Source: Mobula hypostoma (Eukaryota). From it: a stretch of 64,000 bases of DNA. The translations under genes were made by a program, and so were the position numbers. The notes below the pieces were generated by a model. It had not been told where the DNA came from, searched no databases, and was given only the letters and a program-made list of their open reading frames with translations. Shown piece after piece: positions 46,129 to 64,000 of this stretch. Numbering within the stretch: position 1 is the stretch's first letter; each line of letters starts with the position of its first letter. The stretch spans positions 48,672,001 through 48,736,000 of the forward strand of contig NC_086097.1 of NCBI RefSeq assembly GCF_963921235.1. Direction: 5' to 3'.

Positions 46129-46676
46129 TTAATGGTGTTATAGCGAAGGGATGGTAATGCGGACAAGCTCCCAAGGGCGTGTGTCTCAAATAGCCTCTGA
46201 CAACCAAGTCCTGCTCCTGGCCTTCACATGTGGTTTAGCTACTAAGCCTGGCAGATCAGTTTCTATTGAAAGGAGAAGACGTAAAGGCGGATTGCTTCAG
46301 GCAATAGGGGCTCGTCAGCCATGGTTGGCAGCTCATCTAGGATAAGGAAAACTTTGACCTCAGACCTATGCTGCCCTGTGGATATACCCACTCATGGGAA
46401 AGGCTTCAGGGGTAAATCCCGAGGTAAAAATCTCTAGCTGGAGTCCCTGAGGCAGTTCTACATTGACTTCAATGCTGACTGGCAACTCCTTTGATGCAGC
46501 TGGTACCAAACTGCATTGATCTCTGCCGTTCCTTTGGGTTCATCAGTTGCATGGAGAAGGGGAGCTTGCTACATGGGCAACAGTTTGCTCTCCATATTGT
46601 ACTGCTCAAGCTTGTGTATCCAGACAGCTAGGATGCAATATCACTGATCAACTCTGACAGATGGAGGCCTCAGACC
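46127..46676 (+). mobile_element. Non-autonomous element with RTE-like 5' UTR
   Basis: GGGCTCGTCAGCCATGGTTGGCAGCTCATCTAGGATAAGGAAAACT matches 63939-63990; 3' body resembles 62925-63015. Confidence 0.6.
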
Positions 46677-59710: not shown

Positions 59711-61446
59711 TCCTGTTCCAAGTTGATTTGAGACACTGATCAATCTCAACCCAGCAGACTCTGAGAAAAATACTGTTATGAACAGAGTACTCATTCCTCT
59801 CCCACTTTTAACCTCTGGCCATTGCAACCCCAATGCGACTTTTCACTGAGAAATTTTTCAAACTTGATCTGCATTCAGCGGTACTAAATGTAGCATGCAG
59901 TAGTAACAGCGCCATGTAATTTGCCTTGGAAATTCAGTTCCAATGGACCTTCCTTTATTAAGTACAGGCTTCTGTGAACTGTGCCTAATCAGTAACTTTG
60001 AACGCTATCAGACATGCACCATTAGTGTTGCCAGGTTTAGAAAACAAATTACCAACTGTAATTCCTACCCCGATACATGAAGCTAAATAGAACTGTCAGT
60101 GGAGAAGATTTATTGTTAGCAGCTGAGCAAACTTAATTTTATAGCTTGTATCAAAAGTTGACCGTGAACCTGGCTTTTGGACAACAGGATAATTACTATT
60201 ATCTCACATATATTATTCTATGTACACTTATTTCCTTCAAATGTTAAAAACATTCCATGTTCAACTTAATTCATTCTAGCCATAAGGAGGAGGATTCCAG
60301 TGCCTCGGTCTTGCATTGCAGCACAGATGCAACAAATATATAGCCTGTAAGCTGCATTATTAGACATACATTAACATAATTGCATGCTGGATATTATTGC
60401 AATTAATTACTAATTAGTATTTCTACAATGTTCTGGTCAATTGCCATAAAGTGGCATGAATTCTGTAGATGTTTTAATATTCTTTATCAGTTTGTCACTA
60501 TCTACGTCCACATGTTAGTTCTGCATTTCATAGCATTTTGTACTAAAGAGTACTTGCCCTTATCCAGTTTTCTATTTAGAAAATGCTGGTGAAAATAATA
60601 ACTATTCTTAATTCTGTTGGCGGGAATATGCCTTGCAGGTTCCCCAGGCTTTAGAAGCATTAATCCATCTGTTGTGGTGCAAACAGTCTTTTGGGGGAGA
60701 GACCGTATCATTTTAGGTCTGTTTGTGGAGGCGTATGGCTCTGTCCTAGCAATCTGCTAAGGGAAATTAATTTGTTAGCATGGTGGTCTGGCTCTATAAT
60801 ACATATCTATTTCTCTTAGTTGTCTTGGCAATATGGGGGAGATGAGCATGGTATGTATCCAATCTCTGGAAGTCAATTAGAAACAGAGGTGTGGGAGTAT
60901 GATCATTTTGCTTTAATTATTTAAGGTACCAGTGGGTATTAAATTAACTAAATTTGAAACAAGTCTGTTCCTAATCATAAGCACAGTTGGAGATTGTACA
61001 CAATCAGCTCACCATTAATTGCCTGTATATGCAAATGCATAATCAGTGCTGTTTCCAAAAAGTTAAGGGTAGCTAAATTGGGTGGTTACATGGATGGCAA
61101 TTTATTACTAACCCTGGCCCAGTGCTCACTTCCCTTGGCACTGCCTGATCTTTATATTGGTTCATCTCTCCTATTGACCAGCAGCCAAAGCCTGCTCTGA
61201 GTTGGACTGACTCCCATGATGCAACTTTCCTCCAGGACTCGGCTCATTGGTCAAGCACAGGACAAGCCTGATCAAAATAGGCACTGCACTTGCAGTGGCA
61301 GTTCACCCAAACTTGCAAGTTTACCAGCTGTTGGAGAGGAGAATGTCTGTGAATATCTTTGTTATTCAGAAACATTCATTGAAACTCAAAAACTATTAAA
61401 AGCAGTCCTTTAACTCTTAAAATATTTCAAAAACTGAGCACAATGA

Positions 61447-61650
61447 AAATTCAAAGTACATTTATTATCAAAGTATGTATGAAGTATACAACCTTGAGAT
61501 TTGTCTTCCAGCAGACAGCCACAAGACAAACTCCACAGAACATGTTCAGAGGAAACATTAGACACCCAGTGCAGAAAAAAAGAGAACAAATCACAGAAAC
61601 AGCAAAAAGGAGTGAAAAATCCACAGAATATTAAATGTCAAACCATAGGG
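61447..61650 (-). mobile_element. 3' fragment of the non-autonomous retroposon family
   Basis: Reverse complement resembles 19630-19738. Confidence 0.6.
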
Positions 61651-61707
61651 TCACAAAGAGATACTTTTTAAAACAAGAATCTATTTTCATTGAAAATGAA
61701 ATAACAA

Positions 61708-61935
61708 TACACAGAGTTCAGTGAGTGCTTGGAATGAGCTGCCAGAGGAAGAGGTTGGGGAAGGTACAATTGCCACAATTAAGGGGCAATTGGATAGGTA
61801 CACGGAGGGGCGGAGCTTGGAGGATAATTGACCAAATGTGGGCAACTGGCACTAGCAAGGAGAATGTTGTGGTTGGTATGGATCAATTGGGCCAAAGGAC
61901 CATTTCCATGCTATATCACTCTATGAAACTATGAA
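61708..61935 (+). mobile_element. Old CR1 3' fragment
   Basis: TGGAATGAGCTGCCAGAGGA...CTCTATGAAACTATG. Confidence 0.75.
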
Positions 61936-62380
61936 ATATGATCCACTAATTCATAAAAGGATTTTTTTTTGTACTTATCCTACTCTCCAGTACCTTTTGC
62001 AAAGAATAGGGACTCTGGGCTTCCCTACATGCAATTTCTCAAGCCTAAGTGTGGAATTTACTCAGGCATGGACTTGAGAGATTGGGTAGAAGGTTGGGAT
62101 GTCTTCCTTTGCTTGGGAGTCCTAAATTTTCATCCACTAACATCTTTAGAAGCTACAATATGGAGGCAAATCTGCAGAGTTTGAAGCTATTTATGGGCTG
62201 AAAACATCAACGCAGGTTACTACTGGGAGTGGACGGCTAGCCTGCACCTCATAAAGGGGTTGTCCCTTGTTGGATCAGCTGCAGGCTGTTATTGTAGTGA
62301 TTCTAAGATGAATCTGGCCTTAGAAAGGTTGAATGATACTATGAGATAGGAGCCAACAGGCTTTAAGAAATGGTCTGGAT

Positions 62381-62734
62381 TAGTGGCCCCCAAACTCTGG
62401 GCCGCGGACCGATACATTGCCACAAAGAATGCAGTGGTGCAGCGGTAGCCAGAACGCACCCAGCACATCTTTAAGAAAAAAAAGCTGAAATAAACAAGCT
62501 AATTAATTAGGTGCCACCCAGCACGTAAATGTCGGCCCAGATCAGAGGCGATTGCCGATCGCGTCGCCTCTGATCTGGGCCGATATTTATGTGCCGGGCG
62601 GCACCTAATTAATTAGCTTGTTTATTTCAGCTTTTTTTTCTTAAAGATGTGCTGGGTGCATTCCGACTACCGCTGCACCCCTGCATTCTTTGCGGCAATG
62701 TATCAGTCCACGGCCAGGAGGCTGGGGACCACTG
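62381..62734. mobile_element. Palindromic hAT (Charlie-like) MITE, 354 bp
   Basis: Almost the whole element is an inverted repeat; termini (T/C)AGTGG(C/T)CCCC; 8-bp TSD GTCTGGAT/GTCTGGTT (62373-62380, 62735-62742). Confidence 0.92.
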
Positions 62735-62798
62735 GTCTGGTTCGTGCAAAACTGCTCTTTGAGGTAAATGCTTTTATTCAACTGGTAATTATGGATGG

Positions 62799-63109
62799 TG
62801 TTAGCGCATGGCCAAGTGGTTAAGGCTTTTGTCTAGTGATTTGAAGGTCGCTAGTTCGAGCCTTGGTTGAGGCAGCGTGTATGTCTTTGAGCAAGGCACT
62901 TTACCACACAGTGCTCTACGATGACACTGATACCAAGCTGTATGGGTCCTAATGCCCTTCCCTTGGACAACATCGGTGGTGTAGAGAGGGAAGACTTGTA
63001 GCATGGGCAACTGCTGGTCTTCCAAACAACCTTGCCCAGGCCTACGCCCTGGAAACTTTCCAAGGCACAAATCCATGGTCTCGTGAGACTAATGGATGCC
63101 TATATATAA
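62799..63109 (+). mobile_element. tRNA-derived SINE with CORE-like segment
   Basis: A box TGGCCAAGTGG, B box GTTCGAGCC, TGTCTTTGAGCAAGGCACTTTACC; 12-bp TSD AATTATGGATGG (62787-62798, 63110-63121). Confidence 0.88.
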
Positions 63110-63299
63110 AATTATGGATGGATGAATAAATATTACAGTTATTCATTATATCATTTGAGGCAAATGCTTGTCACTAGGGAAATGAAATAAGCAACTCCAT
63201 TAATGAAATTGAAATTATGCCAGTTATGTGTTAGAACTCTAGCTTGTTACAGTTTTGTTAACTTTAAAGTAAGTACTTTAGTGATTGCTGTGGTATAGA

Positions 63300-63670
63300 C
63301 TTACAGTATGCTGCATTACCATGTGGTACAGAAACTGCACTACGGCAGACAGGTAGTTAAAACTGCCTGACGCATTACTGACACCAGCCTCCCTGCCATC
63401 AAGGTGCCAGAACAAGCTCAAGACTATCATGAAGGATCCCATCCATCCTGTTTATGGACTATTTCTCCCACTCCCATCAGGGGAGAGGCTGCACGGCATC
63501 GATACCAGGAGCACAAGACTCAAAATCAGTGACTTCCCCCAATCCATCAGGGTGATCAAAACCTCGACCTATTTACCCACTCCACCACACCCCAACCATC
63601 ACTACATGCACCTCACCAAGCGTCACTTTAGTTCATACAATTAGTCTATGTATATAACTGTTACTATACA
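63300..63670 (+). mobile_element. Old Rex1/Babar-like 3' fragment
   Basis: KDPIHPVYGLFLPLPSGERL...TRLKISDFPQSIR. Confidence 0.75.
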
Positions 63671-63678
63671 TCGTGTTT

Positions 63679-63892
63679 GGGGGGTGCGGATGTGGTCTGG
63701 GCCTGACGTCCCGTTCACCCAGGGAAAGTGAACGCACAATACATCGCCTCTCCTTTCCCGGTGTAGTGATCGCCACGTGGTCACTGTCTGGCCTGCTAGG
63801 CAGGATGCCACTGCCAATGGCCTCTCCTACATTACTGCATCCGTAGCAACGCCTTCTCGTCGGTGCCCCCCATTTCCACTGAGCTTGCTACG
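63679..63892 (+). ncRNA. HDV/CPEB3-like self-cleaving ribozyme candidate
   Basis: P1 GGGGGGT/GCCCCCC, P3 GCC/GGT, L3 TTCTCGTC, P2 AGCAAC/G(C)TTGCT, J4/2 CTGA, structured J1/2. Confidence 0.7.
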
Positions 63893-64000
63893 TCATGGCG
63901 TGACCGAGCGTCCGGTGGTATAACTGGGTGGGTAGGCTGGGCTCGTTAGCCTTGGTTGGCAGCCAGCCTAAGAGAAGGACAACTCTGAATCCAAACCCGG
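63679..64000 (+). mobile_element. 5' end of an RTE-like retroelement (continues beyond the window)
   Basis: CpG-rich. GGCAGCCAGCCTAAGAGAAGGACAACTCTGAATCCAAACC resembles RTE 5' UTRs and 46308-46365. Confidence 0.6.

Follow-up and report, generated by a model that had tools for sequence, protein, structure and literature searches.

A predicted HDV-like ribozyme at the first base of an RTE-clade retrotransposon family in the ray Mobula hypostoma

Known ribozymes of retrotransposons and the ray element

HDV-like ribozymes at the 5′ ends of RTE/baggins retrotransposons were reportedly described by Ruminski et al. in 2011, and drz-Agam-2 belongs to an RTE. Passages of PMC6765202 and PMC3774820 already place HDV-like ribozymes on RTE 5′ ends, and the ribozymes of RTE/baggins elements, such as the mosquito drz-Agam-2 group, are treated in sections of these two papers and of PMC4908430. 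We analyzed a 64,000-nucleotide stretch of DNA from the ray Mobula hypostoma (hereafter the window), and its sequence makes it quite probable that positions 63679-63892 hold an HDV-like, predicted self-cleaving ribozyme in a decayed copy; in an RTE-clade family of non-LTR retrotransposons, this ribozyme makes up the initial ~215 nt. Like the RTE/baggins ribozymes, this element has a nested double pseudoknot that starts with the first base of an RTE-clade LINE, a large structured J1/2 and an extended P2, and it presumably serves to release the element RNA from a co-transcript begun upstream; the ray family differs from them in that P4 is absent, P1.1 consists of one G-C plus U·U, the cleavage-site pair is G-C and the host is a cartilaginous fish.

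The silkmoth R2 ribozymes (Bombyx mori and relatives), to which a part of PMC3774820 ascribes a J1/2 of 216-498 nt and no P4, resemble the ray family in the very long J1/2 (~156 nt in the ray), the missing P4 and the conserved P3/L3/P1.1 core. However, they belong to the R2 clade, which is site-specific in 28S rDNA, is co-transcribed by Pol I and is cleaved upstream inside 28S, whereas the ray element is dispersed and its cut is predicted at its own first base. In large HDV-like ribozymes, a structured J1/2 and a long P2 are described as activating (the "pinch" model, in a section of PMC4908430), and the ray-family J1/2 closing helix likewise adjoins an extended P2. Passages of PMC4836649 give CPEB3 a P1.1 of one G-C and one U-U pair, and both HDV and CPEB3 a G·U wobble at the cleavage-site pair. 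Mammalian CPEB3 shares its P1.1 build with the ray family, where GU after P1′ is the majority, but it is single-copy and intronic, with a P4 hairpin, a short J1/2 and a G1·U36 wobble. Twister-type ribozymes also reportedly occur at RTE 5′ ends, as in Perere-3 of Schistosoma (PMC8501958; remark in PMC7761336); they occupy an equal position with the same presumed job on the same LINE clade, but have another fold.

The biology is therefore expected from earlier work and not surprising; our literature search for ribozymes of the HDV-like or self-cleaving kind in sharks or other cartilaginous fish brought up R2 papers only. What the present case adds is a vertebrate (cartilaginous fish) RTE family, together with at least six RTE families on metagenome contigs, with a predicted delta-type ribozyme at the first base, and the finding that a long J1/2 without P4, a build familiar from silkmoth R2, also occurs in RTEs.

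Fold elements in the window copy and in the family

An initial annotation of this DNA had placed P1, P3, L3 and a CTGA motif (63879-82) in HDV order. When we reread the sequence from 63000 to 64000, each of them was found at its position and in that order, so the observation is confirmed, and its interpretation as an HDV-like ribozyme is supported. The features, all on the forward strand, are as follows.

63668..63678, + strand: upstream copy of the TSD, ACATCGTGTTT, 11 bp; the second copy follows the 3′ end of the element (L001 2167-2177), ~345 bases past the window end
63679..64000, + strand: start (322 bases) of an RTE-clade LINE copy, a 666-bp deletion derivative that continues to about 64344
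63679..63685, + strand: P1 5′ strand, GGGGGGU; predicted cleavage site 5′ of G63679
63686..63841, + strand: J1/2 peripheral domain, about 156 nt, with closing helix 63689-96/63834-41
63842..63850, + strand: P2 5′ strand, CGUAGCAA, plus C63850 (helix tabulation by script)
63851..63853, + strand: P3 5′ strand, GCC; family majority ACC (29 of 30 copies)
63854..63861, + strand: L3, UUCUCGUC, with U at position 1, C at position 3 and G at position 6 as in HDV-type cores
63862..63864, + strand: P3 3′ strand, GGU (helix tabulation by script)
63865..63871, + strand: P1 3′ strand, GCCCCCC (sequence and helix tabulation)
63872..63873, + strand: P1.1 position; AU in the window copy, GU in the family
63874..63878, + strand: 5-nt linker UUCCA where P4 would be (sequence and helix tabulation)
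63879..63884, + strand: J4/2; CUGA(GC) in the window copy, CCGA(GC) in the family
63885..63892, + strand: P2 3′ strand, UUGCUACG (helix tabulation by script)

Direct reading of the sequence shows that GGGGGGT (63679-85) pairs with GCCCCCC (63865-71) in a 7-bp P1 of six G-C pairs and one U·G, and that the 8-nt L3, TTCTCGTC, is closed by the P3 strands GCC (63851-53) and GGT (63862-64). For P2, the letters first proposed (AGCAAC, 63845-50, opposite G[C]TTGCT, 63883-89) are present, but a script listing helices gave a better reading, CGTAGCAA (63842-49) with TTGCTACG (63885-92), in which all 8 pairs are perfect. Since this P2 takes three pairs from the 11-bp helix that had been proposed to close J1/2, the long structured J1/2 and its closing helix stand, but the helix is shortened by 3 bp; in the window copy it can be extended to 63686/63844. 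The hairpins described within J1/2 do exist in the window copy, but some are peculiar to it: CGTTCAC/GTGAACG is perfect there only, the family majority having C at 63712-14, which leaves a C·A mismatch. The absence of P4 was confirmed by the linker in its place. The nested double pseudoknot order P1, J1/2, P2, P3, L3, P3′, P1′, (P4), J4/2, P2′ was found in the window copy and in the family copies L002 and L004.

In order to compare the window copy with its family, the family majority was drawn from an alignment of 30 copies. The P1.1 G-C pair is present in the family majority and not in the window copy, in which A63872 leaves the L3 C without a G to pair with. The proposal that the AT after P1′ is a CpG-decayed GT held up, as base 63872 is G in 25 of the 30 copies and G is also the majority letter in runs X19, X2 and X5. 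Base 63851, at the start of P3, is A in 29/30 copies and gives an A-U pair, C63879 is kept in 29/30, and base 63880 is C in 24/30 but T in the window copy. Contigs from four sequencing runs agreed with the majority letters at 63851, 63872 and 63880 and placed the element boundary near 63680. The C-N-R-A of J4/2 thus reads CCGA in the family and CUGA in the window copy, the candidate for the catalytic C being 63879 or, in another register, 63880. The window copy is probably inactive, because its P1.1 G has become A; if the catalytic C of the family CCGA is 63880, then it too would be lost in the window copy (T63880).

In HDV-like ribozymes, the L3 U and G form a reverse wobble, and the L3 C pairs in P1.1. 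These core letters, whose importance is set out in passages of PMC3774820 and PMC4836649, are present in the family L3, which reads UUCUCG(Y)C (U 30/30, C 28/30, G 26/30), and the same letters recur in relatives. The cleavage-site pair of the family is G1-C (C63871 in 26/30 copies, T in 3/30) and not the G·U wobble, which we treated as frequent rather than defining. P1 position 7 is T (U·G) in some copies and C (C-G) in others, both of which pair with G63865. Apart from this T/C difference and L3 position 7 (T 18, C 12), the variants common to several copies in the ray's own genome are mostly CpG decay, and since these copies are neutral relics they were set aside as a test of covariation. A search with the 34-nt core, from P3 to J4/2, found 55 genomic places at ≤2 mismatches, 15 of them exact, and none with the reversed control. 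Judged from its letters, the family has a variant build without P4, in which a structured J1/2 of ~156 nt would bring the 7-bp P1 beside the 8-bp P2, and in which P1.1 is CPEB3-like, with one G-C plus U·U.

The element, its family and its RTE identity

The flanking 11-bp TSD defines G63679 as the first base of the element, which is also where the initial annotation had predicted the cut. Its view that an upstream Rex fragment ends at 63679 had to be given up, as an older repeat (63330-63678; at least 2,009 candidate places, 72-82% identity) is interrupted by the insertion and resumes after it (L001 about 2184-2300). Farther upstream, at 62504-62611, lies a near-perfect long inverted repeat. 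Both of its strands resemble a miRNA precursor, but their scores with the mir-2329 model (44.5 and 41.8 bits) stay under the gathering score, which is 90, and a palindromic repeat or MITE-like hairpin is a more probable identity than a miRNA.

When 63679-64000 was used as the query, at least 549 candidate places were found in the 3.48-Gb genome. The 40 family places that were scored showed 90-100% identity, and in 30 fetched family loci the upstream flanks were unrelated right up to the G run. In the 666-bp copy, the two ends of a ~4.1-kb element (L031 101-4215) are joined, 543 bases from the 5′ side and ~120 from the 3′ side. The same 543/120 junction was found in 14 of 29 other loci compared, and we conclude that the 666-bp form is an amplified non-autonomous derivative. 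Within it, the segment 63935-63995 showed contig depth several-fold higher in all four sequencing runs and has a weak copy at window positions 46308-46352; it seems to be common to other, more abundant repeat families.

The RTE-like nature suggested at first was borne out by the long family form, in which a broken frame of ~1,066 codons contains an endonuclease (Exo_endo_phos, E 2.7e-07) and a reverse transcriptase (RVT_1, E 7e-14 and 7e-11). The endonuclease part gave 824 protein matches at E≤1e-5. Those of the matching proteins that have a name belong to rays, birds, sea urchins, molluscs and corals and bear the label "craniofacial development protein 2-like", which we take to mark RTE/BovB-derived endonucleases. 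The 3′ ends of copies read ...GCCATGA, followed in several (e.g. L012, L007, L026, L027) by a variable (TGA)n microsatellite. RTEs are reported to tend to seed microsatellites (a reference cited in a passage of PMC6765202), and the (TGA)n tails of the family fit this. The family also has the other traits of an RTE, namely a single long ORF with an N-terminal APE-type endonuclease and RT, a length of ~3-4 kb, no poly(A) and a short-repeat 3′ tail. Judging from the homologue names and the shape of the element, we assign the family to the RTE clade, on the strength of its EN/RT domains, CFDP2-like homologues, ~4.1-kb size and (TGA)n tails. Those family copies that have the longest open frames are 5′-truncated. 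An ORF1 in the frame of the AUG at 63896 (stop-to-stop) was considered and rejected, as its translation was of low complexity and without a Pfam match.

Such an element would be mobilized as follows. Transcription entering from upstream would yield a co-transcript containing the element, and the ribozyme fold would cut it 5′ of G1, leaving an RNA that starts exactly at the first base of the element. The released RNA would then be copied at new sites by target-primed reverse transcription, carried out by the RTE EN-RT protein, which in the case of the 666-bp derivative would be supplied in trans. We infer catalysis and co-transcription, as well as any role in translation, from the fold and its position. 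The minimal P1.1 and the absence of P4 could make the ribozyme slow or helper-dependent. As the derivative was amplified after retaining no more than 543 nt at its 5′ end and ~120 nt at its 3′ end, our data suggest that head plus tail are what mobilization in trans needs.

RTE relatives, alternative readings and other heads

An endonuclease profile search provided 80 metagenome loci encoding relatives. On their coding strands, a strict descriptor matched in L068, L074, L077, L094 and L099, and at one extra low-complexity site common to L062 and L063. As controls, the reverse strands of the same loci gave 1 match in 369 kb, the window gave 0 in 128 kb, and 345 kb of own-genome loci gave family copies only. 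The distance from the P1 start to the EN start was 824-1008 nt in the five strict matches, compared with 960 nt in the ray family. L060/L061, L069 and the core of L058/L059 also fit in relaxed or core-only scans and by eye, the P1 5′ strand of L058/L059 being ambiguous. Altogether, an HDV-type head was found in 10 of the 50 loci with at least 700 nt upstream, a total that combines strict, relaxed and core-only scans with inspection, the controls applying to the strict scan. The P1 strands, 5′ then 3′, are as follows.

Ray family: GGGGGGY / GCCCCCC
L094: GGGGGC / GCCCCU
L099: GGGGGG / CCCCCU
L060: GUGGGGC / GCCUCAU
L074: GGGGGG / CCCCCC
L077: GGGGAG / CUCCCU
L068: GGGGUAU / AUACCCC

Tabulation by script showed that the P1 and P2 sequences vary across these seven families while the pairing is kept; since the descriptor itself requires pairing, the support from such compensatory changes rests on the enrichment over controls and on the common position. 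The P2 strands are 8-10 nt long, differ in sequence by family and are paired at all or all but 1-2 outer positions. L074 and L077, which are 83% identical overall, carry double changes in both P1 and P2. In contrast to P1 and P2, P3 and L3 are nearly constant among the relatives, with L3 reading U(U/C)C(A/U)CG. An L3 with UUC associates with GU after P1′ and no P4 (ray family, L094, L099), and one with UCC associates with GG after P1′, mostly together with a P4 hairpin. The cleavage-site pair is G·U in L094, L099, L077 and L060 and G-C in L068 and L074. L094, which has G1·U, a 7-bp P2 and no P4, is identical to the ray-family head at 100 of 130 nt (77%) from J1/2 through P2, P3, L3 and P1′ (63745-63871). 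In L060 versus L061 and in L074 versus L077, the flanks differ up to exactly the predicted G1, where the element begins; in L099 versus L069, the boundary falls within the G run. Several of the ribozyme-headed relatives have intact frames of 1,087-1,165 codons, so the fold sits on functional-looking elements.

We consider it unlikely that the fold, although conserved, is here mainly a structural RNA whose catalysis is lost or nearly so, serving as a protein-binding site or as a translation aid for uncapped RNA while the 5′ end is made otherwise. Such a role would suit a family with G1-C instead of G·U, a single-pair P1.1 and no P4, and passages of PMC6765202 note that the R2 protein binds its ribozyme region and that HDV-like folds have been proposed as a translation aid. 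Against it, the core letters (L3 U, C and G; J4/2 C) are kept in the family and its relatives, in several families the predicted cut site is where the element starts, and P4-less silkmoth R2 ribozymes are reported active in a part of PMC3774820. Moreover, in relatives with intact frames the first AUG of the main ORF lies about 760-1,500 nt downstream of the fold and not beside it.

We also weighed a chance likeness, in which a G-rich start and a C run 186 nt downstream would happen to lie in a GC-rich 5′ UTR, and the RNA would start at an internal promoter with cap-added Gs. For a search of the window, a descriptor was composed after the candidate site had been seen. It required a P1 of 6-7 bp starting with G, a P3 of 3 bp and a P2 of at least 5 bp adjoining P3, with an L3 of 7-8 nt having U, C and G at positions 1, 3 and 6, and C-N-R-A before P2′; the C-N-R-A pattern for the catalytic C in J4/2 reportedly belongs to a published search descriptor. 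On both strands of the 64-kb window, the helices by themselves gave 15 matches, and the helices with the L3 rule (U..C..G) gave one, the 63679 site, so that the motif alone is just mildly unusual, which leaves room for chance. The same is true of the folding energy: the pseudoknot-free MFE structure of 63679-63895 includes P1, the closing helix and P3, but its energy is ordinary (z -1.46; 16 of 200 shuffles fold equally well). TSD-defined 5′ junctions are ragged, as is usual for LINEs, with 3 to 12 Gs (exactly 6 in L001 and L027), truncated starts in L003, L017, L024 and L026, and extra Gs or other bases in L009, L010, L011 and L028; this variable G run would also agree with cap-added Gs, and the junctions fail to separate cleavage from a transcription start. 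On the other hand, when anchored at the first base of the element, the motif appeared in 0 of 20,000 dinucleotide shuffles of a near-consensus copy, a result to which we gave less weight than to the comparative evidence because of the post hoc design of the descriptor. Taken together with the five strict relatives, whose fold lies at a similar distance from EN, against a single control match, the compensatory changes in P1 and P2 and the P1.1 G restored in the family majority, these results make a chance likeness the least likely reading, and a very improbable one.

The chance reading could also draw on Rfam, where a scan of 60000-64000 with 4,227 models, the covariance-model check proposed at the outset, gave no HDV-type match at E≤10. 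Rfam likewise gave no ribozyme match in ten relatives (E≤1) or in seven own-genome RTE loci. Since the relatives missed include some with P4, the HDV-type models of Rfam are uninformative for this group of RTE heads. As this whole group escapes the curated RNA models, large animal genomes probably hold more such ribozymes than have been counted.

Returning to the predicted ribozyme head, we compared it with the heads of other RTEs. The closest EN relatives are those of the L042 group, with about 60-72% identity. Their elements have a sharp 5′ end, ~843 nt upstream of EN, which begins (A/T)G(G/T)TCAGGTCAGGTTCATTTCGGATC... and leads into a head unrelated to that of the ray family; no HDV-type core and no Rfam match was found in it (L042 5158-5420; L050, L057, L080, L049). 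In a quick tree, the L042 group falls in the same 100%-supported clade as the ray family, and HDV-headed rows are found in both halves. From this distribution, the HDV head is probably old in the group and was replaced in the L042 line, or else heads were exchanged. The ray-family head is 77% identical in nucleotides to that of an HDV-headed RTE although their endonucleases are only 42% identical. Ribozyme heads may thus be exchangeable modules in RTE evolution, a suggestion that we put forward tentatively and rate below even chances. If it is true, heads would be swapped by template switching at the RNA 5′ end, and the "UUC...GUU, no P4" build would be a distinct, widespread subclass missed by standard searches.

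The ray's own genome holds two further RTE families, L033-L036 (e.g. G000:C12:153186000-153193500) and L038/L040, one of which is young: its copies are ~96% identical, and its open frames reach 1,129 codons. In neither family did the descriptor find an HDV-type motif or Rfam a ribozyme match, and no twister match was found in the ray family or in the other RTE loci scanned.

Inspection by eye showed that the predicted ribozyme is followed by a GC-rich stretch (63893..63925, + strand) ending in GGTATAA. In relatives (L094 5215-5245, L099 402-432, L060 458-490 and also L058), comparable stretches with (G/C)TATAT at their end come directly after the ribozyme. The stretch lies too far inside the element to be a promoter for its first base, and this GGTATA(T/A)/CTATAT segment may be a conserved hairpin or a protein-binding site.
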